A stretch of 64,000 nt of DNA from Porphyridium purpureum (lineage: Eukaryota), in NCBI GenBank assembly GCA_008690995.1, contig VRMN01000010.1, forward strand, positions 1-64,000, read 5' to 3'. Shown piece by piece: positions 1-43,509 of the stretch. The first letter of the stretch is position 1. Each line of letters begins with the position of its first letter. A program made the translations under genes and the position numbers. Below the pieces are notes generated by a model. The model searched no databases. It saw only the letters and a list, made by a program, of their open reading frames with translations, and was not told the origin of the DNA.

Positions 1-445
1 CAGGCGGTCCGACGGAGCGGCACTCGCGGCAGCGGCGCGTCGCAAGCAGGCCTCCTTCCAGGCTGCTGCGCGCACCGGCGACGCTGCTGGCGTGTCGTTC
101 CAGGCGGTCATTCTGGACACGTACGGCCGGCGCGAACAGTGCGGAGCCGCGTTTCTGGAGACTCTGGTGGCGGCGTACATGCGGCACCGTGGAGTCAGCA
201 AGATGCTGGCGAGCACGGCGCTCCACCGGTCGCTGTCGCTTGCGGTATACCGCTCGGTGGCGGCGGCGGTGCTTCTACGGCACCCGGGCCCGACTCTGCC
301 AGTTGCCTCGCAGCACTGGCTGGAGACGGGCAGGCGCCTCTTTGTAGGCGAGGTACTCTCGGAATCGGAGGCAGAGTCGCACTGACTTTGCTGATACATA
401 GGTAAAGCACTTAGGCCCTTTAGATTTATAATGTAAAACGATTTC
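1..445 (+). mobile_element. 3' end of a non-LTR retrotransposon with a restriction-like endonuclease (CRE/SLACS/MoTeR-like); ORF is open from the window edge to the stop at 385
   Basis: Frame 2 reads AAARRKQASF...FQAVILDTYG...AAFLETL...LSLAVYR, the typical RLE C-terminus pattern (K..KY...F.P...ET.G...L....S.A..R). A short AT-rich 3' UTR ends ...TTC directly at the 11-mer repeat. Confidence 0.65.
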
Positions 446-471
446 AGAGTAACCCTAGAGTAACCCTAGAG
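446..471 (+). repeat. 2.4 copies of AGAGTAACCCT (reverse strand TTACTCTAGGG), candidate telomeric repeat
   Basis: agagtaaccct agagtaaccct agag read directly; the same motif recurs at 1044, 8442 and 43446. Confidence 0.7.
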
Positions 472-1043
472 CACGACCCGGCGACTTTTCCTTCGACAAC
501 AATGTCGTCGATGTTGCCGTGGTCGCGCCAGACCGGGTCGCCGCCGCTCGCTCGGAAGCGCGGCTCTTTTGCTGCCGCTCGCTGCGGCACCAGTCGGCTC
601 CGTTGGCCACGCAGCCAACATGGTGGCCTTCATCGTCACCACGTACGGCAACGTGGACGCGCCCGCACGTGCGCTTCTTTCTGTGCTCGCGCGCGGCACG
701 CCCGCGTGCGCCAGGTCCCGCCCAGCGGGCGCTGACCGTCCTCGCGGCCGTGTCCTGGCCGTGTACCGCGCCGCCGCACATGGCATTCTCTTGCGGTATG
801 CTCTGGCCCTCACGGCGAGCGGGCTGCGCTGCTCCCCCATGTGACGCGAATCGGCCCTCACGGCGAGCGGGCTGCGCTGGCTCCCCCATGTGACGCGAAT
901 GCTCGGCTCCTCCGAACAGAGCACCCCCGCGCACGAGGCCGGCGCCCTCCAACTTAGCCCCGTGAGCTGATCCAACTTCAGCTCCGACCACGATGAGTCA
1001 TCGTCTCCCTGAATTGGTTAAATTTTAACAATAAACTCAATTC
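472..1043 (+). mobile_element. Second, 5'-truncated and frameshifted RLE non-LTR retroelement fragment
   Basis: RPGDFSFDNNVVDVAV (PD..D nuclease motif, from 474), then across frameshifts RKRGSFAAA, VAFIVTTYG and LAVYRAAAHGILLRY, collinear with the first element. Internal ~48-bp duplication at 805-900. Ends ...ATTC at the 11-mer. Confidence 0.65.
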
Positions 1044-1056
1044 AGAGTAACCCTAG
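1044..1056 (+). repeat. Single telomere-like unit AGAGTAACCCTAG
   Basis: Exact match to the 446-471 motif, at the junction between element and satellite. Confidence 0.65.
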
Positions 1057-1472
1057 TGTTCAGTGCACTTGCGTAGTGTCCAGTGCGCGTTCGTAGTGTT
1101 CAGTCGTCCTCAGTAATGTTCAGTCGTCTTCAGTAGTGTTCAGTTCGATTCAGTAGTGTTCAGTGCACTTGCGTAGTGTCCGGTGCGCGTGCGTAGTGTT
1201 CAGTCGTCTTCAGCAGTGTTCAGCTCGTTTCAGTAGTGTTCAGTCGTTTTTAGTAGTGTTCAGCTCGATTCAGTAGGGTCCAGTGTGCTTCAGTAGTGTT
1301 CAGCTCGATTCAGTAGGGTCCAGTGTGCTTGCGTAGTGTTCAGTTCGATTCAGTAGTGTCCAGTGCGCTTGCGTAGTGTTCAGTGCACTTCATGAGTGTT
1401 CAGTGCGATTCAGTAGTGGTCAGTGTGATTCAATAGTGTTCAGTTCACTTCAGTAGTGTTCAGCGCGCTTCA
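1057..1472. repeat. Subtelomeric 20-bp minisatellite (CAGTAGTGTTCAGTNNNNTT-like, ~20 copies, 10-bp sub-period)
   Basis: Repeating cagtagtgtt/cagt.. units are visible throughout. Confidence 0.9.
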
Positions 1473-1519
1473 GCGTGATCATCCGCGCTCAGTCTCACTC
1501 GCGCGTATGCACACCCGCG

Positions 1520-3169: not shown

Positions 3170-6100
3170 ATGCCGCACTTTTTGTGCAGAAAGGGCTGCG
3201 GCTCAGTCTTGACCAGTCAGAGCGCGCGCGACGTGCATGAGCGCTACTGTTTCTTACAGAGCGAGGACATCGATGGAATGTGCTGTCCAGAATGCATATT
3301 TGCTGTGAAGGTCACACCAGGAGAAGAAAAGAAAGCGCGGGCATACATTCGCAGGCATATGACTCGTATGCACCCCAGGCATTTGTCACGCTCCCCTTTC
3401 ATTGCTCCTTGCGCATCATTCGCGACGGCCAAAGGGAACACACTTCGACAAAACATCTGTAGCTCGGTCCGCTCCGCTCGCGCGATTGTCATTGGAACTA
3501 ACGCTGTGGCATCATCTTCCGCTGTCCGTGCAATCATGGACACGCCGTTGCAGCCGTACAATCCGGCGCGTACGCTGACTGGATCAGCATTGACGACGTT
3601 GGGATTTTACGACACATATGAAGACATGCTTGAAGCGTACTCACATGCCATTCGAGAACCAGCAGAGGAGAGTGTCATCTATGCGCGAGAGTGGTGTGAA
3701 TTTGCGAGGCGGGCAATCAGGCTTGCTCTCAAGACCACGCCACATCTGCTGAGAATTCCCGTGCCTGGCAAGCAGGGCAACCCATCGGAGCTTGACATGC
3801 ATGACCCAGAGGTATGGAGCGATGGATCAAAGTATAGAACTTTGGCGACCCTCAAAGACGAGACTTTGGAAAAGCGCATCCCGAACATCGCACGACTGTT
3901 TTCCTTTTACGCTTACTGGCTTTTGCAAATGAATCTCGAGGACGTCGTTGTGAAATACGAGCAGACCCACGTGCCAAGCAATACTCGTCCTGTGGTTGGC
4001 GCCCTTCAAAGCATTTTGAACTATGCACTTGAGCAACCTACAACATCCACCGGAAACACACGGCCAGCTGCACGCGAATTTTTGCGCTCGCACGCGCTCC
4101 AGCAAGTGAGTGACCGAAACGGAGAGCCATCAAGTATCCACGACGAAATGTCTGGATCGCAGTCCGGCACGTGTTTGACCAGTCGCAGTGCCTTAACGAT
4201 AAGTGAGTTGTCAGCCACGCAGCTCTGGGTTTTGAGAGCTGCGTGGGTTGTGAGGCTAATTGTGAAAGAGAAAGACCGGGAAATACAAACCTCAAACGAC
4301 ACGATTCTTTCCGACGTTCCCTGTGCGCAAGTACTGTACATGATGCACTCCGTCTTCAGAAGCGCGCAAGAGCCATCCACGTACGTGGCATGGAAAGCTA
4401 TGGGCAATGGTTCCTGGATGCACTTAAAGACGGAAGTGCTGGTGCAAGCAAAGGTCTTTGGTAATTTGTACAATGGCTCCAGAGCGGCCGCTCGAGCTTT
4501 GGTTGCCCGAGTTCTTGGAGCGCGCGATAACTTTTCGGTCCGGGTGTTGTCGCAGCATAATACAACGGCGCCAATGCTCGGTGAAATTATACTCGATGGC
4601 AGTGAACGACATGCAGCTCAGCCTGCGGAACTGCTCGCGAGCGCCAGACGCCAGAACATCGATTTCAACGCACTGAGCAATTTTGCATTACTTGCGTTCT
4701 CTGCCGCGTGTGCCCCGCCGCGAAAGTCAAGTATGGAAACTTTTGTTCTCGCTAGCCGAAGTGTTGGAAATTCACTTAGACCTGTTTTAAATACTCGTGT
4801 AGTGAGAGTTGTCGAGGTTGTTGAGAAGAAATTGGGTCGCGCGCTTGCAACTGAAACTGTTGAGCATCTTCCAACTGAGGAAGTCGCAGAAGTGCTGCTT
4901 ATCATGCATTGGATTGCGAGTGCATATATTGACGAGATACTTGGCCAGCAAAATCAGGGGCAAAATGTACCTGAGAGCATTGACTTTCGAAACTTTGGGG
5001 CCTGCGCCAGCAGAACGACTTGTGCAGCACTTAATCCGGAGGAGTGGATTGCACAAGTAGAATGTGCTGTTGGGCAGTTCTGCGCCGTGCCCATGACCTT
5101 ACGGGACTTGCGCAATCTTTACTTGCATTGCGTACGAGACAACGCTGACGCTTTCCGAGGAATTGCCGCCCCGCAAGGGATACAGCCCGTAGACACACCT
5201 GCGCAAAAGTACAAGATCCGCGGCGCAGGTCACTCGCTTGCGACAGACGCCGCATTCTACCTGGCTTCAGTAAAAGACGAAGACTGGTTTGCATTCACAG
5301 TGGAATGTCGCGACGCATGGCTTGCACTGATTGGCGCGGAAACTCACGCTTCGTCACGGATGGGCTCCGTGCATCCGAGAGAGCTTTCGCTCGGAGAATG
5401 GGCCTCACTGGCGGGTTTGACGCCAGACACATTGCTCCGTGATGTATATGGTAGCGCTTCCGTCGCCAGCCCGCAAGCAAGGAAGCAGCTTGAAATGCTG
5501 AACGAAATTCTGATGGACAAGAACGTTTGCGTACAATATCCTTGCGGAAGTGGTAAGTCAGCATCATACTTGTGCATGGAGAAAGTCGTTCGCTTGCAAG
5601 GTGCCTTTGTTCTGCTTTTGGTACCGCTTCGCGTTTCCATGTTTGCTGCATTGCAGGAGGCAAGAAGTAGAAGGATTGAAGCCGTTGACTTGTACTCATG
5701 TACCGAGCGTTCGCATGGCGGCCTCGTCGTCACCAGCATGGATGCACTTGCATCACAACGTGCAGCTCTTAGACGCATTGCAGAACGCATCGCACTCGTT
5801 GTCGTGGACGAGAGTCACGTCGTACTAGAACATAGCTCGTTCCGCGAGTCAATGTCCGTCAAGCTGAGCGCGTCGCTTTTGACGAAATCCTGCTTTGTAT
5901 TTCTCAGTGCGACGATAAGTGAAGATGCTGCTGCGTTCGTTGCCAAAGAGTTTGGTGTGACCATCGACTCCTTTTTGCGTGCACGACCACTTCGAGAATC
6001 ATTGAACATCAGCGTGACAGAGTTTGGCACGAGCGCAATCTGCACTCAACAGATTACGGCCGCCATCCAGGAAAATGCGCTTGCTCGTCGTGGGCGTGCA

Positions 6101-7444
6101 CTGATAATGTGTGCTACTCATGCAGAAGCCGACACATGGTTTGACGAAATGAGAAAGTCTTACTCGGATGCATGTTACAAACTGACAGCACGTGAAGCTC
6201 TCGACGCTGAGGCATTGCAGCAAGCGCGGGTAATCGTTGGCACATCCGCTGTGAGCTCATCTCTGAATTGCAAATCTGTTTTGTACTGCGCCGTGATGCG
6301 CGGAGCACATTCGCTCAGCCAAGTGGTCCAAGCATGGGGCAGAGTTGGTCGCGACGGTGAGCACGCCCGCTGCGAATTTTTCTTCGACAGAAATTTCCAG
6401 AACGCATTGGACCAGCGTGACAGCCCGAGCATTCGCCAGGTTCCAGGTTTTGAGCGCGACCCTTGGCATAGTAAAGCCGGTCTACGGCGCTTCGTTGAGA
6501 GTGCACTTGACTTATCCTCTCACGAAGTTCACAGCGTGCTCAACCTTTTAACCACTCGCTCCATGGTGACTCAGACAGCCAACCCAGTGACGGTGCCGCA
6601 GCCAAGCTTGCACGAGATGGTGCGGCCAAGTACGCACGTGGTTGCAGAACCAAGTTCGGGCATGATAGCGCAACCGACGTCGTACATGCTGGCACAGCCA
6701 AGCTCGCACACGGTCGCAGCGCCAAGCTCGCACACGGTCGCAGCGCCAAGCTCGCACACGGTCGCAGCGCCAAGCTCGCACACGGTTGCAGCGCCAAGCT
6801 CGCACACGGTTGCAGCGCCAAGCTCGCACGTAATGGCGCAGCCCACTTCGCACGTGCCGGAGCAACCAACTTTGCACTTGCTCGCGCAGGCCAGCTCGCA
6901 GCAGCACGAGGCGACGCCACTGGCTAGCTCTGCACCAGCGCGCGCGCTGGGCGAGCAATTACAGACGATCAGACAAGCAAGAGCGACATGGAATACTGCA
7001 ATGTACAAATGCATCTGGTGCAGTGGTGTCACATGTCTTGGCACATGCCAGAATCCGAACAGGTTTCCCAACACCTGCCCATACTGTGGGTTTCGATACT
7101 CACGGTCATCTGCAGCGGCCCACGTCTCCTGCAGCAAACGGTCGGCCGGAAATATCATCAGACCAAGACTCGCGCCAAACTTGGGCATGTGTTTCCGTTG
7201 TCTGGCCCCCACCGAAGTGTGCGAAAAGAAATGCGAAAAGGCTCCGAGCGCCTTAAAGCACAGAATGGAAGCCGTGTATCGGAAAGCTTTCTCCTTGATG
7301 GGCACTCCCGGATCTGGTGGAGCAGAAGAGTTGACCATCTTCTACACACACAAGCTGTGCGAACTCGTGAGCTGGGAAGGCTTCGAGTTGTACAAGCGAG
7401 CGACAAAGCTCATGGCGAATGAATGGAGCCTTCAGAAAGTATAA
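3170..7444 (+). CDS. Telomere-linked-helicase-like protein: N-terminal zinc fingers, tyrosine-recombinase-like region, RecQ-like SF2 helicase, Cys-rich C-terminus
   Basis: CxxxC..HxxxC and CPEC..HxxxxH fingers; helicase motifs PCGSGKS, LLVPL, VVDESH, LSAT, QAWGRVGRDG; YR-like PPR(4721)...LRDLR(5111)...AGH(5231)x8Y(5258); C-terminal CxxC pairs. First ATG at 3170. Confidence 0.85.
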   Translation: MPHFLCRKGCGSVLTSQSARDVHERYCFLQSEDIDGMCCPECIFAVKVTPGEEKKARAYIRRHMTRMHPRHLSRSPFIAPCASFATAKGNTLRQNICSSVRSARAIVIGTNAVASSSAVRAIMDTPLQPYNPARTLTGSALTTLGFYDTYEDMLEAYSHAIREPAEESVIYAREWCEFARRAIRLALKTTPHLLRIPVPGKQGNPSELDMHDPEVWSDGSKYRTLATLKDETLEKRIPNIARLFSFYAYWLLQMNLEDVVVKYEQTHVPSNTRPVVGALQSILNYALEQPTTSTGNTRPAAREFLRSHALQQVSDRNGEPSSIHDEMSGSQSGTCLTSRSALTISELSATQLWVLRAAWVVRLIVKEKDREIQTSNDTILSDVPCAQVLYMMHSVFRSAQEPSTYVAWKAMGNGSWMHLKTEVLVQAKVFGNLYNGSRAAARALVARVLGARDNFSVRVLSQHNTTAPMLGEIILDGSERHAAQPAELLASARRQNIDFNALSNFALLAFSAACAPPRKSSMETFVLASRSVGNSLRPVLNTRVVRVVEVVEKKLGRALATETVEHLPTEEVAEVLLIMHWIASAYIDEILGQQNQGQNVPESIDFRNFGACASRTTCAALNPEEWIAQVECAVGQFCAVPMTLRDLRNLYLHCVRDNADAFRGIAAPQGIQPVDTPAQKYKIRGAGHSLATDAAFYLASVKDEDWFAFTVECRDAWLALIGAETHASSRMGSVHPRELSLGEWASLAGLTPDTLLRDVYGSASVASPQARKQLEMLNEILMDKNVCVQYPCGSGKSASYLCMEKVVRLQGAFVLLLVPLRVSMFAALQEARSRRIEAVDLYSCTERSHGGLVVTSMDALASQRAALRRIAERIALVVVDESHVVLEHSSFRESMSVKLSASLLTKSCFVFLSATISEDAAAFVAKEFGVTIDSFLRARPLRESLNISVTEFGTSAICTQQITAAIQENALARRGRALIMCATHAEADTWFDEMRKSYSDACYKLTAREALDAEALQQARVIVGTSAVSSSLNCKSVLYCAVMRGAHSLSQVVQAWGRVGRDGEHARCEFFFDRNFQNALDQRDSPSIRQVPGFERDPWHSKAGLRRFVESALDLSSHEVHSVLNLLTTRSMVTQTANPVTVPQPSLHEMVRPSTHVVAEPSSGMIAQPTSYMLAQPSSHTVAAPSSHTVAAPSSHTVAAPSSHTVAAPSSHTVAAPSSHVMAQPTSHVPEQPTLHLLAQASSQQHEATPLASSAPARALGEQLQTIRQARATWNTAMYKCIWCSGVTCLGTCQNPNRFPNTCPYCGFRYSRSSAAAHVSCSKRSAGNIIRPRLAPNLGMCFRCLAPTEVCEKKCEKAPSALKHRMEAVYRKAFSLMGTPGSGGAEELTIFYTHKLCELVSWEGFELYKRATKLMANEWSLQKV
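6697..6829 (+). repeat. 24-bp coding minisatellite encoding (PSSHTVAA)n
   Basis: gccaagctcgcacacggt(c/t)gcagc x5.5, with degenerate units on either side. Confidence 0.95.
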
Positions 7445-8273: not shown

Positions 8274-8520
8274 AAACCATTAAATCGAAGGACTGGCTCG
8301 AAGTAGGAGGCGTTTGAGAAAGGCGAAAATGTCTGCGGGTAGCTCTTCTCTGGCTCCACATTTGCCTGTGAAAACACTGGGCAATGCACTTTCCATTAAT
8401 GAGCTACACTAGGAAAAGGAAACCCTAACGCGAATTGCTATTAGAGTAACCCTAGAATGGAACTGTCCAACAAAATTAGATTATTTTGTAGCAAGCAACG
8501 GAACGTACTGTACCTCTGAG

Positions 8521-9781
8521 TCAAACCGATTTGAATTGGCGGTTTTCAGTGCGCCACCACTTAAGCACATGCATGAATGCTTCCCAAACGCGTCCGTGGT
8601 TGATACGCCGCCATATGAACTCCTCCAAATAAAGGTTCACACGATTTCCATCATAAGCAGAATCAGGCATGGTTGCTTTCACGGCCCGCCAAGTTCCTTC
8701 CACTGTATTCGTGTGCACTCCCGTAACCGGATCCTTGAAGTGCATTTCATGGTTTACGGTATAGTGTCTGAGTGTTATCCGTTCGACCCCAGTCACCTAG
8801 AACGGTTCAGTTAATCCGAAACCGGTAAGCCGTTAAACCGGTAGGCCGTTTAACCGTTTCTAGAAGCTTCTAGAGGTTCCAGAACCTTCTAGACGCGCGC
8901 AGAAATGCCAATGGTTTGCATTGTCATTTCTCTTGGCGCCTTGCTGTCCCTGACGGAAGTAAGGGTATAAAAAGGCGACGCGCCTGCCCGGACTAGCCGG
9001 TCAGGTCTTGCTCGGAGAGAGAAGCAGGCAAAGACGCAGAGAGTAATAAAGGCACAGCATTGGTAACACTGAGTGTCGGATGGTACTTCAAAATGAAGTA
9101 CGACTTCCAGCAATCCGTATGTATAATGGAGCCCGGGTGCACACGCTGCTGTATGATGGGAATTAAAGTGCGCGTTGTCCGGTTGGGCACCACTGTCATG
9201 AAGAGACGGCGTTCTTCAGTTCGTTCCACTCCGGCAAGCACCCATACCCCATCAACGCGATGTCCTCGATGGTACTTGCGCTTCCGAAACTTGCTTTCGT
9301 CGATTTCGACTGTAACATCCTGGCCACAAGTGGGAGCCTCATGCATAGCATCGTACTCGACATTGCACTGGCGTACATGCATGAGAATGCTGCGCACTGA
9401 GCTCCTCGCGAGTCTAGTCAACTCTGAAATCTGCGTGGCACAAAGACAGTGGAGCCAAAGAAAAACACAAAACAAGACATCGTGAAAAGCAAGATTTTTA
9501 TGGGCAGAGAAGAACGAATTTGTAGATCGAAGTGATACAAACTGCTGGCAAGCCTTTCTCTTGCACCTGAATGCACACTTTACCTGAATCTCGCGCATCT
9601 CCGCCGAGCAACCCACCGCAGGACAACGCATTTTTGCCGCAAGCACACCGATACTCATAAGGAACTGTATGCATGCATGCTCATCGGAGAGCAGTGCATA
9701 GACTTCCTTGAGCGTAGGAATACCGGCGTCCTCCATGCTCCTCCTCCCTTGCCCCTTCGTCAGCATGCATTCATGCTCCAT
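8521..9781 (-). mobile_element. Merlin (IS1595/ISXO2-like) DDE transposase interrupted by a solo LTR
   Basis: Zinc ribbon CPAVGC...CKRKAC; VEIDESKF.KRKYHRG, WVLAGVER, PGSIIHTDCWKSY, H.TVNH...F.DP.TGVHTNTVEGTW, YLEEFIWR. Removing the LTR and one TSD copy restores ...YHPTLRHYTVNH in frame. Confidence 0.92.
8773..9068 (+). mobile_element. Solo LTR (296 bp) with 5-bp TSD CTGAG
   Basis: TGTTATCC...GGTAACA termini; CTGAG at 8768-8772 and 9069-9073; internal TATAAAA (~8967) and AATAAA (~9045); homologous copy at 42855. Confidence 0.9.
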
Positions 9782-9845
9782 AACGTCAGGTTCGGTTTAT
9801 CGGTTTATTATTTCACTCTACCTCCTTGAGTACAGTTCATGGAGA

Positions 9846-11228
9846 ATGTACAGGTCGCACCCTCGCGCTCCGTCAGCCGCTGCACAGAATAAGCTAGACG
9901 CAGAGTTTCACGGGCGTTGGAAGTTTGTTATGGACTGTATCGGGTTCAAGGCTTTAGTCAGTGAGCCTCTGGGAAGCATGACAATGATGGATCTACGCAG
10001 AAAGGTTCGGGAGAACGAGCTGGAGCCCGTGACCAGGTCATTGATGGTCAAATTTCGGCAGCTGACGGGTTTAACGACGAGATGGTGCATAGATTTTGAC
10101 GCGAGCCAGCCAGGAAATCTGGTGTTTGCCGACTTTGCAATCACGGCTTTGCCGTGCAAACGGTTGAGCGCTGGTAAAACAGTGCTTTGGGCGAGGTCAA
10201 TAATGGACAGCCGCTTTCTACGATGGATTAGGGATACGCCAAGAGGTTACGCTAATCGCCTTGTCACGGAGGATCGGTTTGCGAATATGCCCAATGTCAC
10301 GGGTTTTCGCGTTCGGTGCGACGGTGATGTATGCAGTATGGTTCACTCGACGTCGGCGGGAGGAGCTGAAGACCTTGTTGCTCCTCATTCACCACGCGAG
10401 CTCATGTATGTTCAAGCTTATCATACGAGTCGTCACCGTGCTTCTACCAACGCGTTAAAGCCGCTAAAGTGGCCTGGTGAACAGCGCACAGTTACGTGGC
10501 CGACTGCCGTCCAACTGTGTAAGGCAGCCGATTGGCTGGCAGATGCAATTCGTGAGGAGACCAAGAATGACCGTGCCGGACAAGGTGTTCGAATTGAATT
10601 TAGGGTGAGCCTGAGACAGCACAGCTTTGCGGGTGTAGACGGTGAGTCCCTGTGGTTTGAACATGACACGGTCGAGCGCGTTGAGGAAAATGTCTGGGCC
10701 ATCGTTCTCCGATGGATGACGTCAGTGCTCTGCGGACAATATCTTCTGTGCTATCAGACGGACGAGCTCAACGATTATTTGCGAATCACGGCGGAGTGCT
10801 TGAGACTGACGGGTAGACGCGCGCTTGGACAGCTGGCCCGTATGAGTGACTTTGATGCAGATGGTCACTATTGCGAATCCGTCAGTTTTGCACGTCGTCC
10901 TCTGCATGCGTTGCTGATCTCGACATATATTTTGCAGACGGGACTTTTGCGCCGCTTGCCAACCGACAAGACGTGGTTTCGTCAGATTGTCATAGACATC
11001 TGTGGTTTTGACACATTCGTGGGGCAGCGTAAGGCAGGTAAAGTTGTATGGCTGAGGGTTACTGTAGGGTTTAGGGTTGGTGGTGGATGTACACTCCTGG
11101 CCAAGATGGTTGTCCCAGGTGCAATTTCAAGGTCTGAACTCCAGTTTTATAGTAAAAACGAGCGTTTTCATATAAAATCAACTAGAATACCTTTTTTAAC
11201 ATATTTTTGTTCCTCAGCTCAGAGGTAA
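9846..11228 (+). CDS. Uncharacterised ~400-aa ORF divergent from the Merlin transposase; 3' end runs into a telomere-like tract and the Tc1
   Basis: Long ORF with motifs WCIDFD, YVQAYH and GVRIEFRV; the last ~60 codons come from inserted sequence. Confidence 0.55.
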   Translation: MYRSHPRAPSAAAQNKLDAEFHGRWKFVMDCIGFKALVSEPLGSMTMMDLRRKVRENELEPVTRSLMVKFRQLTGLTTRWCIDFDASQPGNLVFADFAITALPCKRLSAGKTVLWARSIMDSRFLRWIRDTPRGYANRLVTEDRFANMPNVTGFRVRCDGDVCSMVHSTSAGGAEDLVAPHSPRELMYVQAYHTSRHRASTNALKPLKWPGEQRTVTWPTAVQLCKAADWLADAIREETKNDRAGQGVRIEFRVSLRQHSFAGVDGESLWFEHDTVERVEENVWAIVLRWMTSVLCGQYLLCYQTDELNDYLRITAECLRLTGRRALGQLARMSDFDADGHYCESVSFARRPLHALLISTYILQTGLLRRLPTDKTWFRQIVIDICGFDTFVGQRKAGKVVWLRVTVGFRVGGGCTLLAKMVVPGAISRSELQFYSKNERFHIKSTRIPFLTYFCSSAQR

Positions 11229-12640
11229 GCGCGCGCTTTTGCGGGACCCCATGAGGCCATGAAGGGGTTCAAGACATGTGAAAGAAGACTAACGCATCTA
11301 CTGCACTCGGGCATACGATCGCGACCAAGTCCAGCAACCGCAAGCATCGGAAACATGGCACCACGGCTCTCCGACTTCGAGAAAGGGCAGATTGACGCTC
11401 TGCACCGGCTCTGTCTGACGCCGCGGGCCATTGTAGCACGTCTTCATCCGCGACCAGACAAGACCCGACCATCGTACAAGACTGTGGAGCGATTTCTGAA
11501 GAATCGAGGCAAGAAAAGGGTTTTCAAGAAACCCGGACCGGCGCGGACAATATCGCCGAAATTGGAGCGTCGCCTGATTCGGCACGTCATTACGGATAGG
11601 TTGACGTCTGCACAGGCAGTGACGGAGCTGCAGCTTGCGTGCAGTGCGAGAACTGTTCGTCGTATCCTGCAGAGATCACCAGAGGTTCGTATTATCGCAC
11701 AGAGGCGAAAGTTCTTCATTTCGGAGAAGAACCGAGTCAAGCGGCTTGCATTTGCTCGAGAATACGTTCACAAGCCGCTATCGTTTTGGAAGAATGTCAT
11801 CTTCTCGGATGAAAAGATCTTTCGGCTGGACGGGCCACACGGGTACAACAAGACTTATCAGCGAACGCGAGGCCCTGAGCCCGCGCCAACTATGCGTCGC
11901 CATAGTGGCGGAGGATCCGCAATGTTTTGGGGTGCCATGTCGTGGCACGGACTGAGTACGTTGCATCGTGTTCAAGGCTCGCTGAATGCCGAGCGATATC
12001 GGCAGGTTATGCTGAACGTCATGATGCCCTGGGCACTGGAACTGCCTTGGCGCCTTGATCAGCCGGATTGTCCATTCATATTTCAGCAAGATAATGCGCC
12101 CGGACATGCAGCGCTGAGCACGCGCGAGCTGTTTGACACGGTCGGAATCGCACTACTTGATTGGCCAGCGCGGTCGCCGGACTTGAATCCAGTTGAGAAT
12201 CTGTGGGCGATCGTTTCTCGCCGTGTGCATTGGCAGGGACGCCAGTTTATGCGCCTCGATGACATGCTTCCAGTTATCTATGACTGCTGGCGAACGGAAG
12301 CGCCAGAGTATGTTGAGGCACTTTTCGAGAGCATGCCCCGTCGTCTGCAAGCTTGCATCGACGCCGGTGGCCGTCAAACCAAGTACTAGTTTCGTTAAGA
12401 CAGTTAAATCTCTTCTCATAAGCGTGTTTGTCCTCATCAACCTGTTTCATTGTATTTCTTTTCTGCGGCCCTTCTCACAGGTGTCTCACTGTTCTACGAT
12501 GCCTTTCTAAGCCCTTACCGCTTTCCCGTGCCGCGGATTCGTTTCGTGCCATCAAAACAGACGACAACCTAGTCGAAAAGCTGAGTTATTCACAAAAAAC
12601 TTCATTTAATCCTGTGGGACAACTAACTTGGCCAGGACTG
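11092..12640 (+). mobile_element. Complete Tc1-like DNA transposon
   Basis: 26-bp TIRs CACTCCTGGCCAAGATGGTTGTCCCA / reverse-complemented CAGTCCTGGCCAAGTTAGTTGTCCCA (23/26); TA on both flanks. Confidence 0.93.
11355..12389 (+). CDS. Tc1 DD34E transposase
   Basis: HTH N-terminus, VIFSDEK, FQQDNAPGH, WPARSPDLNPVENLW with 34 residues between D and E; no stops. Confidence 0.95.
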   Translation: MAPRLSDFEKGQIDALHRLCLTPRAIVARLHPRPDKTRPSYKTVERFLKNRGKKRVFKKPGPARTISPKLERRLIRHVITDRLTSAQAVTELQLACSARTVRRILQRSPEVRIIAQRRKFFISEKNRVKRLAFAREYVHKPLSFWKNVIFSDEKIFRLDGPHGYNKTYQRTRGPEPAPTMRRHSGGGSAMFWGAMSWHGLSTLHRVQGSLNAERYRQVMLNVMMPWALELPWRLDQPDCPFIFQQDNAPGHAALSTRELFDTVGIALLDWPARSPDLNPVENLWAIVSRRVHWQGRQFMRLDDMLPVIYDCWRTEAPEYVEALFESMPRRLQACIDAGGRQTKY

Positions 12641-12717: not shown

Positions 12718-15700
12718 CTATAAACCTGGTCTTATCCAATCATCCAGCCCATTTACGTTTGCCTGTTCCGCGGCCTTGCGGTACCACTCGGCCGCGGCGC
12801 GCTTGTCCTGCCGCAGCCCGCCCATCCCTTTCGCGTAACAAATGCCCAATTTTAACTGCGCCGCTGCGTCTCCCTGTTCCGCGGCCTTGCGGTACCACTC
12901 GACCGCGGCGCGATCGTCCTGCGGCAGCCCGCCCTCCCCGTTCTCGTAACAAGTGCCCAAATTATTCTGCGCCGCTGCTTCTCCCTGCTCCGCGGCCTTG
13001 CGGTACCACTCGACGGCCGCGCGCTTGTCCTGCGGCAGCCCGCCCTCCCCGTTCTTGTAACAAGTGCCCAAATTAAACTGCGCCGCTGCTTCTCCCTGTT
13101 CCGCGGCCTTGCGGTACCACTCGACGGCCGCGCGCTTGTCCTGCTGCAGCCCGCCCTCCCCGTTCTTGTAACAAGTGCCCAAATTATTCTGCGCCGCTGC
13201 GTCTCCCTGCTCCGCGGCCTTGCGGTACCACTCGACGGCCGCGCGCTTGTCCTGCGGCAGCCCGCCCTCCCCATTCTTGTAACAAGTGCCCAAATTTTTC
13301 TGCGCGCGTGCGTCTCCATGCTCCGCGGCCTTGCGCCACCACTCGACCGCGGCGCGCTTGTCCTGCGGCAGCCCGCCCAATCCGAACTCGTAACAACAGC
13401 CCAAATTAAACTGCGCCGTTGCGTCTCCCTGCTCCGCGGCCTTGCGCCACCAATTGACCGCGGCGCGGTCGTCCTGCGGCAGCCCGCACTCCCCTTTCGC
13501 GTAACAACGGCCCAAATTAAACTGCGCGTCTGCAAATCCCTGATCCGCAGCCTTGCGGTACCACTCGACCGCGGCGCGCCTGTCCTGCGGCAGCCCGCCC
13601 TCCCCGATTTCGTAATGAACGCCCAAACCAAACTGCGCGCCTGCAAATCCCTGATCCGCAGCCTTGCGCCACCACTCGACCGCGGCGCGCTTGTCCTGCG
13701 GCAGCCCGCCCTCCCCGTCGTGGTAACAACGGCCCAAATTATACTGCCCCTTTGCGAGTCCCTGTTCCGCGGCCTTGCGGTACCACTCGACCGCGATGCG
13801 CTTCTCCTGCGGCAGCCCGCCCAAATCGTACTCGTAACAATAACCCAAACTGTTCTGCGCCGCTGCGTCTCCCTGCTCCGCCGCCTTAAGCAACCACTCG
13901 ACCGCCGTGCGCGTGTCCTGCGGCAGCCCGCCCAAACCCTCGTGATAAAAATAGCCCAGCCGGCCCTGCGAGTGAGCGTCGCCCAATTGCGCCGCCTTGC
14001 GGTACCACTCCAGCGCTTCCGCAAAGTCCTTGTTGTCCTCAGCAGTCCGACCACGTCGCTGCCAGTCCGCCGTGTCGCGCCGCGCCTGCTCCGCGGCGGC
14101 GGCGGCGCGATGCGCAGCTCTCGCGCCTCCTTCTCGCGCCGCGCTTGCTCCACCGCAGCAGCGCGTTGCGCGGCTAGCTCTCGCGCCTCCTTCTCACGCC
14201 GCGCTTGCTCTGCCGCGGCAGCGGCGGCCTCTTCTTCACGCTTCCGCGCAGCAGCAGCTTCCGCTTCGCGCCGCGCGGCAAGGTCGCGCGCTTCCTTCTC
14301 GAGGCGCTCGTGTTCCTCTGCGGCTGCCCGACGAACGGCGGCTGCGTGCTCTAGAGCCTGACGATCGCGCTCCGCTTTCTTCTTGTCCTCTTCAAGCCGC
14401 CTCTTCTCAGCCTCATTCTGTTGCCGTCTTAGCGCTGCCTGCTCTTCGGTCTCCACCGCCTTGAACCATTCAGACCCCGCCGGGCTGCCGAGCTTTGCGG
14501 CCTTGGCATACCACTCCTTCGCCAGGCTCCAGTTCTGCGGCACGCCCCGCCCAGAGTGGTGGCAGCGGCCATACTCAATCATGGCGTCCGTGCGTCCTTT
14601 CTCAGCGGCTGCGCGCACCCAACCGGCGCCATGTTCCAAGTGCTGGCTCCTGCCGTGCGAGCCGTCGAGCAAAATCTTGCCCAGCCGGAATTGGCCTTCC
14701 GCGGCACCTGATTCCGCTGCTAGCTTAAAATACTCATACGCGTGCGTCATGTTCCCCGCTTTCTCCCATTCCTCTGCGTAGCGGAGCTTGTCATCGGCAC
14801 TCAGCGTTTGCGCTTGTGCGGGCTGGGATACACTTGGCCCCGCCGAACTGCCTCCCGTGCTCGACACTGCGGCTCCTGACCGACCAGATGCCACCGTAAC
14901 GTGCGAAACGCGTGCACCCAACGCACCAACCTCTACCGTGCTCGCGTCAGAAGAGGACGCAATGGCAGAGACACAGGCCTGCTCCTTGCAAAATGCCACC
15001 GAAATTTTCGCCATGCTCGGGCGCTCTCGAGCATTCATTCTCAAGCATGCTTTAGCCGTGTCTACTAACCACGTCGGCCAGGCGTTTGCGTATGTACTTT
15101 TCTTCAGCCTGTGCCACGGCACGCCCTTCGTCGGATCCCTGAGTGCCATATCGATTTCCACCTGCGTCGCTCTGCCAAACATGGGCTCGCCCAATACCAT
15201 CTCATACAACATGACTCCAAACGACCACACGTCACAAGTCCGGTCATACTTGTCACCACGCATGACCTCTGGCGCCATGTACGCATCTGTGCCAGCCTTT
15301 GATTTTGCATATGACCCGGTGTTCTTCACGGTTGCCAACCCAAAGTCGCTGATCTTGGCCGTGTATTCCTCCGTGAGCAGAATATTCTGAGGCTTGATGT
15401 CTCTGTGGATCAGTTTCGCAGAATGCAGGTACTTGAGACCATTCACGATGCCAACAAAAATGTCCAACAGCTGCGCGCGGGGCAGCACACCCTGCATACT
15501 ACTTCGAAACATGTGTTTGTCCAGCGAGCCGTTCGCTGCGTATTCTAAAAGAATGAATGGCTTCCTGTGACGCTGCGTACCGCTCTCGAGCGGATAGAAC
15601 CCACCACGCGTCTGGATGATGTTCGTATGAGAGAGCCGCCACATCGCCCCGAGCTCGTTCTTCAACTGAATCAGCGCATCCATTGTTTCCGTCGGTACTT

Positions 15701-16541
15701 CCTTGATGGCCACCGTTGACCCAAAGCATGTGCCTTTGTAAACAATTCCAAAACCTCCAGAGCCCAGCATAACGTACTCGTCCAATTCGTCACGCTCTTT
15801 TCGGACGTGCGCGACGTCGACATACCATGGCTCCGTTTTCGTGGGTCCGGTCGACAAGCCGCTGGAATTAGAAGCGTCTGTGTACGGCTTGTGGATATCC
15901 ACGCGGAGACTGTGCATCTGAAGAACAGCGCTCTTTTCTGATCCGGAACCAAGTTGCTCTTCGAGCTTGGGTCGATCCTTGACCTTATCCTTCTCCAGAG
16001 CCAAAAGTATTTGCTGGTGCCTATGTTCTTGCACATGCGTGCCTCGTTTGTGAGAGTCCGCAAGCTTGAACAAAACGATGCGCGATAACTGAGCTTCGAG
16101 CTTGTCCAGCGTATCGCTGCAGGTCTGAAATTCGGCCTGGTAGTTCTTTGCCCTCATCACGCGACGAAACTTCTCATTCCAGCGTTCTGCGGACGAGAAC
16201 TTTTCCACAAGCGAGCAGGTGGACTCGAGCGCGGACGTCAGATCCGCCAGGCACTCGAGCAGGCGACCGTGCTGCGCCTGGTCTGTGCCCGACCTCATCT
16301 TTTCGCCTTGGCCACCAAAATAATCAAGCAGCACGCTCTCAATGCCGGCGGCCTGCTTTGCCAGCTGCTTACATGTGTCGTGCATGGCTCGCGCGGCCTG
16401 CGCCAGCTCCACGATGACCTTGATGACCGCGTACGCCGCCGCAACGTACGGCAAAACCTCGCCGACATCGTTGGCGATCGTGCCTCCGACTTTGAGGGCT
16501 TCCTCAAACGCCGCGCGCTCCGCTGCGCGACCTGCCGCCAT
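12718..16541 (-). CDS. MLKL-like helical N-terminus + TKL-type protein kinase + Sel1 repeats; one frameshift near 14116
   Basis: Kinase motifs GSGGFG, VAIK, HRDIKPQN, DFG, APE; Sel1 units and an E/A/R coiled coil follow. At gagctgcgcatcgc (minus strand) the natural sequence continues in the frame of ORF 12718..13986 (..AAEQARRDTADW...EWYRKAAQLGDA..). Confidence 0.85.
12763..13983 (-). repeat. Eleven tandem 111-bp Sel1 repeat units
   Basis: 37-aa unit GDAAAQxNLGxCYxxGEGGLPQDKRAAVEWYRKAAEQ. Confidence 0.95.
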
Positions 16542-17435
16542 GACGCCGTAGACGAGCCGCCGCGCGGACTCTGGCTCTGTTCTCGACGCGTGCGAGCGTG
16601 TGTACCCGGCTATCCCAAAGACAGTGCCGTCGAGATTCCACCGTCCACTCCGTGCGCAACCACCACGCGCACCGATAAAGCCAAACCGTCTCTACCCCGC
16701 TTGCACGTGCTGCGTGGTCCACGCCGCAACGCGTGGCAAACGTGAGATGCCGAAGCAATTTATACTGTGCTCGGGTCGCAGTGCGGTGCTTACCGTGCAC
16801 ACTGCGCGCAGAACAATAGGCGCAAGCCCCTCAAAATCGGCGGCATCCAAATCAGCCGCGCCACTCGGACACGCGCAACAGAATTCGCATTCTGCTGGAT
16901 AAAACAGTGCCCAAAACGAGCTCGCTTATGGCCCAGCGCCAACGGCGCGTGTGGAAACGGTGGCCACCGGGCAGAAGTCGCCGCGGTGCATAGCAAATCG
17001 AGGCGCTTTAGTAGAAGCGCGCTCACACGCAAGAACGCGCCAGGGGCGCGGGAGGGAATAAAAACGACGCGTGTCAGCCAGCGGCGAGGCGCGCGTTTCG
17101 ACGTGATGCGGCTGCCCGCGCGGTTGCGTACCAGCGCGGCGCGGATTCGCGCGTGTAGAAAATCGGGGTGGGCTAGCGAAAGGGGGTACACTTGTGAGCG
17201 ACAACATGGTTTGACAGGCAACGCGCGCATGGCGCGAGCGGAACCGCTCATGCGCGGTGGCTACCATGTCCCACACAAGGCACTAGTTACGTGTCGCGCA
17301 AGGTCCTCGGTGGTCAGCCCGAAGAACACATGGTACATCTTGGTTTGCCATATGCAAGCAGCGTGGCGGAAGTAGAGACGCTTGCAATCTAACCTTTTCA
17401 AATGCCTCTCATATTCACATGCTTCTAAGCACGGT

Positions 17436-21304: not shown

Positions 21305-22213
21305 CTAGTCAGCTGGGTATTTCAAAGAAAACTGCGCAGCTGTATGTCCCTGTTCCGCGGCCTTTCGGTACCAGTCGACCGCCGCACGCTTATCCTGCGG
21401 CAGACCACCCTCACCGTTGCAGTAATAATAGCCCAAATGATACTGCGCCATTGCTTCTCCCTGTTCTGCGGCCTTGCGGAACCAGTGAACCGCCACGCAC
21501 TTGTCCTGCGGCAGACCGCCCCACCCGTTTTCGTAATGAACTCCCAATTTACACTGCGCCGCTGCGCAACCCTGTTCCGCGGCCTTGCGGTACCAGTCGA
21601 CTGCCGCATCCCTATCCTGTGGCAGCCCGCCCTCACCGTTGCTGTAATGAGCGCCTAAATTATGCTGCGCGCTTGCGTCTCCCTGTTTCGCGGCCTTGTG
21701 ATACCACTCGACCGCCGCGTGCATGTCCTGCGGCAGCCCACCATCCCCGTTGTCGTAATAAACGCCCAAATTACTCTGCGCCCTTTCGTTTCCGTTTTCC
21801 GCGCCCTTGCGGTACCACTCGGCCGCCGCGCGCTTGTCCTGCGGCAGCCCGCCCTCCCCGTTACTATAAAAGACGCCCAAGTTAAACTGCGCTCCTGCGT
21901 CTCCCTGTTCCGCGGCCTTACGGTACCACTCGGCTGCCACGCGCTTGTCCTGCGGCAGCCCGCCTTCCCCGATGCAGTAACAATAGCCCAAATTGCATTG
22001 CGCCGCTGCTTCTCCTTGTTCCGCGGCCATACGGTACCACTCGACCGCCGCGCGCTTGTCCTGCGGCAGCCCGCCCCACCCATTCTGGTACCAAACGCCC
22101 AAATTATACTGCGCCTGTGCGTTTCCCCGTTCTGCGGCCATGCACCACCACTCGACCGACGCGCGCTTTTTCTTGGCCGAACCGCCCTCCGCGTGGCTGT
22201 AACTAACGCCCAT
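21305..22213 (-). pseudogene. Sel1-repeat array (~8 units), 5'-truncated paralog
   Basis: Same 37-aa unit; upstream reads DAAA-stop where Q is expected, and no kinase lies upstream. Confidence 0.75.
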
Positions 22214-25200
22214 CTTAGGTTACGCCGCTGCGTCTGTGTGTTAGCTTAGTCGCTGTCGTTCGTCGCTTTCGAGCAAACATTTGACGAACGCACCAACTGT
22301 TCGCTCCCTTCCCTCCTGCCCTTCTCCATTCTCCCATTATCGTTCGACGCACCTTGACAACTGGAAGAGCAACTTCAGCACCCACGCCTCGCCACGCTGG
22401 AACTCTTGCGCGGGTGGGCCTTTCTTGTGACGAGGAGGCGTTTCTTGCGCGCACGGTGTTGAGATGCGCGGAGAGCGGCGCGTCGGACATAACGGATAAT
22501 GTGGAATCGTTGAGCCGTTAAACCGGTTAATGGTACGGGCTGTGGCTCAAGATGGGAAGCTATTTGCTGCGATGATCGGCCGGCGGCACGACCGTGGAAG
22601 AAAGGGTCCGCCGATTTGTAACCTGCGCGCAAAGCTTGGCGTAGAGCGCGACGGCGGCGGTTGTCGGGAGGGAGTGCGAGTTGGAAAAGATGTTCGTTTA
22701 GAGCGTGATAAACTTGGTTGTTGGATTGAACTTTTGCCATCAGCGGAACGAGGTTCCTGCGGTAATTCTTGGCTGCTTCTGAGAAAATGGTGATTGCGAT
22801 GGCCCGTTCGTCTCGTTCCAAGTTCCAATTACGATGGAAGTTTAAGAACGGTGAATTTCAGCACAAAATTTTTTTACCTTGACAATTTAACTCTTGTTTA
22901 ACTTTTGCTCTCCTGTCTTCTGCCGCTTTTACTTCGCTTTAAACCGCTTGAAACATGCCGTCTTCTATAGTCGCGTTCGCGGCAAATGGTCAGCGTATTG
23001 CGCTCTTGCCGTGACACCTTGCTCCGATGCAGCGACCCCTCGTGCTCGTGTTTTGAAATCTGCACAGTATTCAACTTGCGTCCCTTCGCGAGCGTCTCGA
23101 GCAATCCTTCTCGAGATCATAATAGTTTCTGAATTTAAGGGACGAAGTTGATCACTACCAATTCTTCGAAATTGCGCGGGGTACGCTCGCGTGAGTACAG
23201 CCTGCAAAGTCTGGACAGCGACCCGTTCGCCGCAGACGCACGGCGACTCGTGTGGAGGAGAGCGAAAGAGAGAATTTAAGCGATCGCCTGTGCAGCGGAG
23301 GAGGGCGCCTACGTGCGCAAAAGACGCTCTAGAACGAGCAATTTGGCCCAGCGTCATTGGAGGTCCCTGTACGCGAAGCATGCAGGAGTGAGATTTTCGC
23401 CAACGCGCGGCGGGCATCTCTGTGGCAGAAGAGAATGAAGTCTGGCCGTCGTGAATACGCAAAACAAGTCTAGTATGATCGGAAATGGGGCGCACGCCGA
23501 TGGTGAGCAATGGTCACCACAGGCCTGGTGGATTGAGGCAAGGCGCGCCCGCGGAGTTGCGAGGAATCTTTGCAGGCACCGACAAAGATGGAATATGGCA
23601 GGAACTTGGAAAATTTGAAGAATCTTACCTCCAAGGAGGCTGAATTGATTTTTGCGCAGGCGCAGATGATGAGCAGAGGTCGCGAACGCCAGGAAGTTTT
23701 TTATCCTTTGCGGACGCAGACCTTGAAGTATAAAAGGCACATCCGCGTGGAGTGGTGACGCCGGAATAGTGTGGTTTTAGAGGTGTAGACATAGTCAGTG
23801 GGAGAAGATAAAGTTTGCTTTTAGAAAATCTCAAATGTCCGCGCACGCAAGTGTATCTGAAGTGGTTGAGCACGTAGTGGTTCAACAATTAAAAATCGTT
23901 AAAAGTTTACTGAAAATAACGCAAGTATTAGTATTAATAATGTGCGAGCAAAATGGATAGGACCCCCACAGTTCTTTCCCAATTCAGAGTTTTATATGAA
24001 AAGCTCATATTTTAGTACGATTTGGACAGGAAACCGAAGAAGGGCTTGAGGAATGGACCAAAAATAGAGTCAAAAGGGATTTGACCTCCAGTTTTGTTCA
24101 AGCAAGTATGCAAGAAGGCAAAAGCAAAACTGACCCGGATCGCCCCACCTTTATGCACGCTCACGCCGCCAAAGTCCCCACGTGCGATCTTCCACTGGCT
24201 CATATCGTATGTCCAAGGTAGCCAGCTTGACAGCGCTTTGCGCAGGAAAAAAACAGCACTGTTCAGCCTGTCCACGGTCCTGTACTGTCTTTGGTCCTCA
24301 AAAACCTTGTAGTCCGCAAACTCCGGAAGCTTGCAATCGTACGAAAGTCTCAAAGTCGCGCAAGCTACTCAATAGTGCAGTTCCGTCTCGAAATCGCTGC
24401 TTCTTTGTTGGCAGGGTACTGCTTCGTATGGTTTTACATCCGAATGATGCCATTTCCCGCTCAAGCCCACTGTTTCTGAAGCTTCTTTCTCCTCTCCAAC
24501 ATGCGCACGTACTTGTCCGCGGTCACTCCGGCTTCAGCAATATGAATGCATAGTTCTATAGAGTTTAAGCTTGCTTCCCAGGTGGTGAGACTTCAACCAC
24601 CATTTGAGTAGATCAAGACGAATGCGTGATGCCCACCTCATCCATGTATTCCGCGTGAAAGGTATCTGGACGCATCCAAATAAAATTTTTTCTTGTAACA
24701 AGGAACAACCTTCTTCTACTTCTCGCAGAACGCTGCTTGAAATCTGGCACTTTAAAGTCCTTTCTGCTTTCGGAAAAGTACCAAAGAAGGATTCTTCGGC
24801 GTGGAATGGAAGGTGAAGTGCTGCTGCTTTGCTTTGCGAAAAATGGTCCATGATTCGAAAATCTTTGCTCCGTGTAGGCGCGAATGTTTGGCTACGGGGC
24901 TTGCCTTCAAACATTTCCCAAAACTTGCACTGTTTGTATTCTTTTTCATAACGGGCGGCGTGGGCTTCAAGGCGTTGTTTGAGTCGTAGTTCAAGCCGTA
25001 GGCATCAGGATCTTGCAAACAGTGGCGCATTCTGGTCCGAAATCGATTTACTTTACTCTATATTACATACCGACTGTTACTGGCAGCCTCAAAGACCAAA
25101 ATGGAACCCTTTTTTCAAGCTGCGAAAGCCTGTGTGTACGTCCCATGGTAGCTGAGCGGCTGTACCGCCAAGGTGCTTACACAATGGTTAAGCTCTGTGC

Positions 25201-42253: not shown

Positions 42254-42854
42254 CGCGCATCTGTCTCTCTGTGAAGCCACCCTTCCACGCTCACTCGCTG
42301 CGCTCACATCCGCACCCGCCTCGAGCGCTCACGATATAATTAGGGTTTGTAACCCTAGCGCTGTCAAGCTGCGCGCGTGAGCGGTGCCGGTATCACCGTG
42401 TCGAGCTGGAACTCGGCGGGCGATGGGACAGCAGTGTGTGCAAAAACCAATGGCACGCGCCAGCTGGCGGCGTGATGGAAAGTTCCTGTTCAGCCTTTTT
42501 GCGTCGGGGTAACAGATGCTACGAAAAGACGAAACATGCGTCTTTGAGATTGGATATTGTGGCTGTTTAACGCTTCTCATTCTAACTAGATAACTATGAT
42601 AAAACTTCGTAACCTCCTTCCCTGCATTTACATGCTCGCTTCGCGGAACCGACGAGTGCATGCCGCGATTTCCATGCCTTTCTTGCTCTCGCGAGTCGGC
42701 TTGGCGCAAACGAGCACCGGCAAGGGGGACTCGTGCGACGCACTCGAATGCTCGCGGCGTTTCCCGGGATGCCGCGTGAATGCGTCACATTCCTGCCACA
42801 AATGACGCATTTCGTGGCGCGCAGTGCTTTGTCTATTACGTCACTTTGCGGATG

Positions 42855-43147
42855 AGTTATCAATGCTAAGCCTGTACTCTTCCTCCTTCTTACCTCTTCT
42901 GTCTCAAAGCAAGACCTAACCGGCTAGCCCGGGCAGGCGCGTCGCCTTTTTCTACCCTTACTTCCATGAGGGACAGCTAGGCGCCAAGAGAAATGATATT
43001 GCAAATCATTGTCGATTCTGCGCACGTGTAGAAGTTTGTGGAGACTCTAGAAGCTTGTAGAAACGGTTCAACGGTCTACCGGTTGAACGGCTCACCGGTT
43101 TCGAATTGACCGAACCGTTCTACTTGAATGGGGTCGAAAGGATAACA
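42855..43147 (-). mobile_element. Diverged solo LTR of the same family as 8773-9068
   Basis: Reverse-complement similarity along the full length; flanks GGATG/AGATG (4/5 TSD match). Confidence 0.85.
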
Positions 43148-43509
43148 AGATGCATCTTGGAATCCTTGCCAAAGACAAAACTACTCACAGCAGTGACACA
43201 AGCAGTTGGGAAAAACTATACAAGAATGCATCTCAGAAGCGTGGGCTGCCGGGCGGATAGTTCCAGTTAGGCGAACGGCGCCCGTCTTGGGTGGCAGTAA
43301 AGGTTGGAGCTTTGGCGAGTGGGAGATTGTTCGGGCACCGTGAGGACCTACCGCGTGCATTAAAGCTCGCGGTTCTATGACAGCACTCTCAATTCCTCCG
43401 AGGCGTGAATGAGCGAGTCGTAAAGCACAATACGTAATGAGGGAGCCCTAGAGTAACCCATTGTAGGGCTAAAAGTCCAGACTCGTGGTGATGTTAAAGG
43501 TTATCAAGA

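Follow-up and report, generated by a model that had tools for sequence, protein, structure and literature searches.

The window analysed here comprises the first 64,000 nucleotides of a contig of the red alga Porphyridium purpureum (VRMN01000010.1, forward strand), and its first 1,473 positions hold an ordered series of features that all read in the forward direction. Positions 1..385 encode the C-terminal half of the restriction-like endonuclease (RLE) of a retrotransposon of family 1 (F1), in an open reading frame (2-385) that is open leftwards. It is followed by an AT-rich 3' UTR of 60 nt (386..445) that lacks a poly(A) and ends in TTC. The next 26 nt (446..471) are an interstitial tract of the 11-mer AGAGTAACCCT, likely the telomere repeat, whose C-rich strand is the forward one; the tract was delimited by TRF and amounts to 2.36 units, in keeping with the 2.4 units given by an earlier reading made without database searches (hereafter, the sequence-only reading). 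Behind it lies a copy of family 2 (F2; 472..1043), identified by tblastn and by its upstream continuation in contigs, which is 5'-truncated immediately 5' of the RPGD motif. Its reading frame (845-970), whose end resembles gene model P0084, gives way to a 3' UTR (971-1043) that also ends in TTC, and TRF finds a 48-bp duplication within the fragment (805-900). The 13 nt at 1044..1056 are again the 11-mer, in the same register as at the F1 end, and overlap by 3 nt a satellite with 21 copies of a 20-bp unit (10-bp subunit; 1054..1473, TRF).

As the sequence-only reading had described, two RLE-type 3' ends stand head-to-tail, and both pass from TTC into the same register of the repeat (at 445/446 and 1043/1044). 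Neither has a poly(A), the longest A runs being 4 in the F1 3' end (386-445) and 3 in the F2 3' end (1003-1043). Beyond the TTC and the junction the two ends have no detectable likeness (180 of 1000 shuffles score equally high). With at most one mismatch, the 11-mer occurs 6 times in the window, where 0.33 matches are expected, and none of 100 shuffles reaches 6. A poly(A) or microsatellite tail peculiar to one family was rejected as an explanation, because the junction is common to two families whose 3' ends are otherwise dissimilar.

The truncation of the inner copy at the repeat, part of the same reading, is borne out by short-read contigs: they carry the F2 upstream coding sequence that is absent from the window and join the window at 469-471, which implies a microhomology of 1-3 nt at the truncation. 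They also differ from the inner copy by indels in 540-760 (e.g., 2 nt at 579 in four of four runs), so some of the F2 frameshifts are probably assembly errors. The junction between F2, repeat and satellite is bridged by short-read contigs of X2, X4 and X15; the junction 471/472 is bridged by none of the pieces listed from 7 short-read runs. Positions 1-445 and 472-1043 are confirmed as 3' ends of non-LTR retrotransposons that carry a reverse transcriptase (RT) and an RLE and belong to two families. Since these ends stop at a fixed position of a likely telomere repeat, the window probably represents a left chromosome end.

Element proteins and their relationships

Fifteen proteins are 94-100% identical to the F1 peptide of the window; 10 have a recorded RT domain, and 9 are named Porphyridium purpureum. 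Positions 2-382 are 98-100% identical to the C-termini of the RT proteins P0002, P0004, P0005 and P0008, and positions 471-987 match the C-terminus of the F2 proteins P0013, P0016, P0018 and P0073 (tblastn). The two window peptides by themselves gave no match in a Pfam scan. The families are more numerous than the two or more first proposed: there are at least four (F1 to F4), with 32-52% identity over the best aligned stretch.

The RT, zinc knuckle and RLE that had been anticipated upstream were found. RVT_1 (Pfam) is present in all six proteins scanned, and the residues of the CCHC knuckle and of the RH, E, R/K-P-D and D/E motifs are complete in F2 and F3; in F1 they are present piecewise, spread over error-prone gene models. 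One F3 protein (P0020, 1261 aa) holds C2H2 fingers, RT, zinc knuckle and endonuclease within a single model. The motif spacing (first spacer 10, RHA or RHE, RPGD or RPYD, last spacer 8) is unlike the SLACS/CRE pattern (PMC12857005). At the N-terminus, C-x4-C-x12-H-x4-H is seen in F1 and F3, with a weak Pfam match to C2H2 fingers (E 0.004, below cut-off). Residues 1-510 of P0081, a zinc-finger-bearing N-terminal region joined to F3 in the gene model, differ from the remaining Porphyridium element proteins in the comparison and may represent the N-terminal part of a further family.

The best PDB sequence matches of an element protein are R2, and the top seven PDB matches of a full-length model of the F1 protein P0008 (pLDDT 82) are all R2 proteins. 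A model of the C-terminal endonuclease domain (185 aa, pLDDT 86), which contains most of the window's F1 peptide, aligns with residues 1218-1383 of R2Tg at Z 12.2 (rmsd 2.9 Å, 149 residues aligned); viral PD-(D/E)XK nucleases come next, with Z of at most 8.1, and the top seven Foldseek matches are all R2. The domain is thus predicted by the model to fold as a restriction-like endonuclease, the identity first read from the peptide. R2 proteins (PDB 8GH6, 9DOU, 9NL2, 9NL3) are the closest solved structures for both the full length and the endonuclease domain, at 13-18% identity, but their target is 28S rDNA, unlike that of the Porphyridium elements. Fold and domains rule out an LTR or DNA-transposon origin.

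Some 4,500 representative proteins match at E <=1e-10; five of these match F1-F4 themselves, and the best of the others listed are about 30-39% identical. An ESM Atlas search with the endonuclease region returned eukaryotic clusters only, and no related loci were found in viral contigs and prokaryote genomes.

An RT tree against CRE, SLACS and MoTeR had been proposed, and the comparison could be made with a MoTeR-like protein. We built two RT-region trees (56 and 28 rows), both quick trees with long branches and open deep nodes, from the element families, their relatives, one Cladobotryum protein and one Closterium protein, none of the rows being labelled CRE1, SLACS or CZAR. In both, F1-F4 form one clade (SH-aLRT 100). 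A single clade of F1-F4 and five further rows is rejected (AU p = 0.012); the tested group, which was chosen after the first tree had been seen, consists of one Cladobotryum RT, MoTeR-like by motif only, and four relatives. This tentatively suggests a local radiation and an origin of targeting separate from that of fungal MoTeR-like elements.

Junctions, arrays and genomic context

Other copies were followed in short-read contigs (31-mer assemblies) from 7 of the 24 listed runs. Among the 24 loose ends listed out of 30, 11 lie behind the match, and all of these start at 457-465 and none earlier, so at least 12 repeat letters are kept at each. The DNA beyond the repeat varies: it is F1 cut at 316 (X2), F2 cut at 883 (X1), F2 coding sequence with a more upstream cut (X4, by visual comparison with P0016), the satellite, which the loose ends at 465 enter (X1, X4, X18), or other DNA. 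The last ~34 nt of the F1 UTR (with 3 differences) and the same junction recur at the 3' end of another family in four of four runs. This third end has no family assignment, so the fixed junction is directly seen for F1, F2 and it, rather than for all four families. None of the grounds for refutation named by the sequence-only reading applies: RT is present, the domain is predicted to fold like the R2 endonuclease, and the copies are not strewn about with unrelated 3' flanks. The 11 listed junctions keep the repeat, and a single internal cluster of genes was found (see below).

The arrays are mixed. Five chimeric gene models fuse families head-to-tail, with F2 before F1 (P0013, P0019, P0077), F1 before F2 (P0084) and F1 before F4 (P0010). 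The repeat is also heterogeneous, a TAACCC unit interrupting the 11-mer tracts in X1, X2, X4, X6 and X7 and a TAA stutter occurring in X7. Resolved tracts span 1.1-2.4 units, or ~3.4 in one X2 joint, in contigs of 31-mers that cannot resolve longer ones. Repeat depth sums do not separate junction contigs from pure-repeat contigs and hence yield no telomere length.

Element genes were placed by accession order, the accessions of named proteins running in contig blocks and locus-tag offsets being constant per contig. This gave 31 named element genes on 22 contigs; masked entries (eight element proteins and one helicase) and a contig-less accession were set aside. Contigs below 100 kb carry 19 of the 31, yet hold at most ~504 of the 9898 genes of the genome (total from PMC6811547). 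The remaining 12, on larger contigs, divide into 5 near ends, 3 in an internal cluster and 4 that are not placeable. All four testable ends (bracketed by adjacent accession blocks, on contigs of 1.0-2.4 Mb) have element genes, five of which are within 5 accession steps, a placement whose chance at mean gene density is 0.002-0.018 per end. The internal cluster comprises three F1 and F3 genes (KAA8499395-KAA8499403) some 690 genes inside the end of a 5.7-Mb contig, and may be an interstitial array, a relic, a chromosome fusion or a misjoin of two ends. Position at contig ends supports a telomeric location rather than proving it, because contigs break at any long repeat.

The 20-bp satellite occurs at another locus directly behind an F1 end and 1.8 repeat units, and is likely a telomere-associated sequence. 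Further inwards, a gene for a RecQ-like helicase of 1361 aa lies at 3359..7444 on the forward strand (Pfam DEAD and Helicase_C, with the recQ family below cut-off). It has six copies, 96.5-100% identical. Among the five named paralogues, four are separated from an element gene by 1-5 accession steps, one of them being provably at a contig end; for the fifth, on a 407-kb contig, the shortest such distance is 166 steps. By analogy with fungi, the multicopy gene is likely a telomere-linked helicase (TLH), a kind of gene of which we know no red-algal description. The likeness to fungal TLH is one of gene type, copy number and position; one word-based search found no relative outside the gene's own cluster. 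The gene also contains a 24-bp tandem repeat (6697-6829) and encodes a cysteine-rich C-terminus.

Beyond the helicase lie Sel1 genes and DNA transposons, and then ordinary genes. Sel1-repeat genes were found at 12721-16691 (-), 21308-22219 (-), ~1570-2500 and 40682-42328 (-), and decayed Sel1 copies adjoin the satellite. One Sel1 gene encodes a kinase whose N-terminus gives a weak MLKL-like match (E 5e-4, below cut-off), and it has 10.6 repeats of 111 bp. These genes are possibly a subtelomeric, immune-like family. A Toxin_16 match (E 0.015, below cut-off) opposite a decayed Sel1 repeat was dismissed as chance. ISXO2-like (Merlin-type) and Tc1-like transposases are encoded at 8996-9796 (-), 11229-12386 and 46252-47199 (-), and a 295-bp element end (8773-9067) has an inverted copy, 84% identical, at 42856-43147.

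The 11-mer as a candidate telomere repeat

In Porphyridium, the telomere repeat is likely this 11-mer, whose G-rich strand reads TTACTCTAGGG. It has a TAGGG core and a G-rich/C-rich strand asymmetry, and its C-rich strand reads inwards, as expected at a left end. The telomere motif of Galdieria, CCCTAATAAA, has the same build (PMC8287931). Against a telomeric repeat counts that the invariant first 12 nt after TTC could be element RNA instead of target. No long 11-mer array or physical chromosome end was seen in the 31-mer contigs, which cannot display one.

A 2013 survey reports for P. purpureum no telomerase activity and no telomere motif with the primers tried (PMC3622300), and a 2020 review describes red-algal telomere data as mostly missing. 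The P. purpureum long-read assembly paper contains no word starting with 'telomer' (PMC6811547), and in C. merolae TERT is transcribed (PMC1955436). Our search of the open-access literature, which took in neither Repbase nor TeloBase itself, found among the papers listed no red-algal telomere-targeting element and no report of the 11-mer. A literature text search with the 11-mer in six rotations returned 22 papers, none of them about telomeres judging by title or abstract start, and five red-algal names had no match in the TeloBase supplement.

Isolated copies of the 11-mer occur in the window at 8442, 42349 and 43446, and a degenerate one at 11055-11079; beyond position 1100, two matches reach at least 14 nt, versus none in 30 simulations. 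The motifs at 42341-42358 (an inverted pair) and 43446-43459 stand ~55-90 nt upstream of ORF starts, and by analogy with Arabidopsis would be telobox-like promoter sites. On the reverse strand, 11055-11079 joins a variant of the 11-mer to a TTTAGGG unit directly before the end of a probable Tc1-like element, a possible old interstitial telomere. The match at 8442..8456 (15 nt, forward strand) is isolated, with no recognisable element. In the stretch around it (8420-8456), two telomere-like motifs flank 12 nt whose first 9 letters open the string of a MoTeR 3' relic (PMC8381367), a likeness noticed after the fact that is probably due to chance, or else a tiny relic.

Outside Porphyridium, an exact search for the repeat in metagenomes returned one phage contig, which lacks an element protein: about three 11-mer units lie in an intergenic low-complexity tract of this T7-like phage (L001:2790-2870), unrelated to the elements. 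A 16-mer of the repeat occurs in 8 viral contigs, none of which has a tblastn match to the elements, and an exact search of prokaryote genomes gave no hit.

Mechanism, alternatives and significance

We consider it probable that these loci are a MoTeR-like telomere-targeting system, in which at least four related families with RT and RLE have their 3' ends fixed in a likely telomere repeat. The earlier claim that such elements insert into the telomeres of this alga holds as far as the fixed junction and the mixed arrays are concerned; for its other half, the telomeric nature of the 11-mer, the support is indirect and comes from the contig-end position, the satellite, the helicase, the polarity and the heterogeneity of the repeat. 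The capping role that it also suggested finds no support here. By analogy with R2 and MoTeR, and with the chemistry taken from R2 structures, the protein would bind its own RNA and the repeat. It would nick the G-rich strand at one register, and the free 3' end would prime reverse transcription. The cDNA would lengthen this strand outwards, with the 5' end of the element facing the terminus, and the repeat units on the inner side would be trapped as a short interstitial tract. Copies truncated at the 5' end, which are cut at variable points, could result from incomplete cDNA synthesis, or from later breakage, with telomerase adding repeats anew where 1-3 nt of microhomology exist. Repeated rounds and recombination between ends would then give rise to mixed head-to-tail arrays, and the elements may be active at present.

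The arrays might instead be the telomere itself. The 11-mer would then be a tail of the element RNA that pairs with the natural chromosome 3' end and extends it, and eroded arrays of the four families would form the ends, with telomerase weak or absent, in a Drosophila-like manner but with CRE-type elements. All 11 listed 3' junctions begin with an identical 12 letters, the copy that follows has many different cut points, arrays fill the small contigs, and stutter units could arise by RT slippage. The absence of telomerase activity in the 2013 survey would also fit, but its primers apparently lacked the 11-mer motif (PMC3622300). The shortness of the resolvable tracts is likewise as expected, but it is all that 31-mer contigs can show, and in X1 and X6 the depth of contigs that reach 1.8-2.1 units is between about one half and three quarters of that of the 3'-end contigs (depth being no copy number). 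The endonuclease motifs of F2 and F3 are intact, the motif standing alone upstream of genes suggests a host binding site, and C. merolae transcribes a TERT (PMC1955436). We regard this explanation as unlikely, and give the same low credence to what it entails, namely that Porphyridium ends are mainly or wholly kept by four CRE-type families with 11-mer-carrying RNA, a retrotransposon telomere independent of that of Drosophila.

It is just as unlikely that the target is not telomeric at all, the 11-mer being a subtelomeric or interstitial minisatellite or the site of a host protein, the arrays simply breaking assemblies, and the true telomere repeat being a different one. The internal cluster on the largest contig, the isolated motif copies (8442, 11055, 42349, 43446) and the lack of a terminal array in the 31-mer contigs could be accounted for in this way, and RLE elements with microsatellite targets are known (PMC4640811). 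Yet MoTeR too has internal relics (PMC8381367), the strand polarity is correct, the 11-mer is mixed with the canonical TAACCC unit, the shared satellite lies directly behind the repeat at two or more loci and the multicopy RecQ helicase beside the arrays. Finally, the tandem arrangement of the window could be an artefact joining two collapsed repeats, given the indels in 540-760 relative to short-read contigs and the lack of any listed piece across 471/472. We judge this very improbable: independent short-read contigs contain equivalent junctions (F1-repeat-F2, F1-repeat-F1) that are cut elsewhere, so structures of this class exist whether or not the window's own junction is correct.

Telomere-targeting RLE elements are known from fungi and Giardia, and among the analogues first named MoTeR is indeed close, to which we add FoTeR; HeT-A/TART must be dropped. 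HeT-A/TART-type elements have an AP-type endonuclease or none, and poly(A) tails, whereas the longest A run in the Porphyridium 3' ends is 4 and the predicted fold is restriction-like. Telomere-associated arrays of non-LTR elements are shared with HeT-A/TART/TAHRE (Drosophila), SART/TRAS (Bombyx) and Zepp (Chlorella), but these belong to other clades (Jockey, R1, L1-like; PMC10088271). MoTeR1 and MoTeR2 of Magnaporthe (Pyricularia) oryzae resemble the Porphyridium elements in RT and RLE, in polarity, in head-to-tail arrays (homogeneous or mixed in MoTeR), in short repeat tracts and in many 5'-truncated copies; MoTeR copies point their 5' end outwards and are separated by half a unit to more than 20 units (PMC7367193). 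Occasional internal relics are common to both (PMC8381367). The differences are that MoTeR targets plain TTAGGG, rather than an 11-mer mixed with a 6-mer, that it has one RT family and a non-autonomous partner, rather than four RT-encoding families, and that its telomeric position is verified, where that of the Porphyridium elements is likely.

FoTeR of Fusarium oxysporum shares N-terminal C2H2 fingers, RT, endonuclease, truncated copies, few repeat units behind the 3' ends and a co-occurring multicopy helicase (PMC12857005); the Porphyridium system differs in its host, a red alga, in its non-canonical repeat and in the spacing of its endonuclease motifs. Domain order, catalytic residues and site-specific insertion into a multicopy target are also shared with CRE1/CRE2, SLACS, CZAR, Cnl1 and GilM/GilT, but CRE and SLACS target spliced-leader genes (PMC12857005, PMC10088271, PMC4640811).

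For the telomeres of mesophilic red algae, long a puzzle, TTACTCTAGGG offers a concrete candidate motif in P. purpureum. The red-algal elements are a real, apparently undescribed variant of the known telomere-targeting RLE elements, which they extend to red algae with an apparently separate origin; a MoTeR/FoTeR-like chromosome end, with element array, satellite and RecQ helicase, would then be convergent. If the ends were element-built after all, they would be a retrotransposon telomere within the plant kingdom, in a lineage whose telomerase activity has escaped detection. Four diverged families that share a target site lend themselves to work on DNA recognition by these enzymes, and an RT-endonuclease specific for 11 bp would be attractive for directing insertions in an alga that can be transformed.
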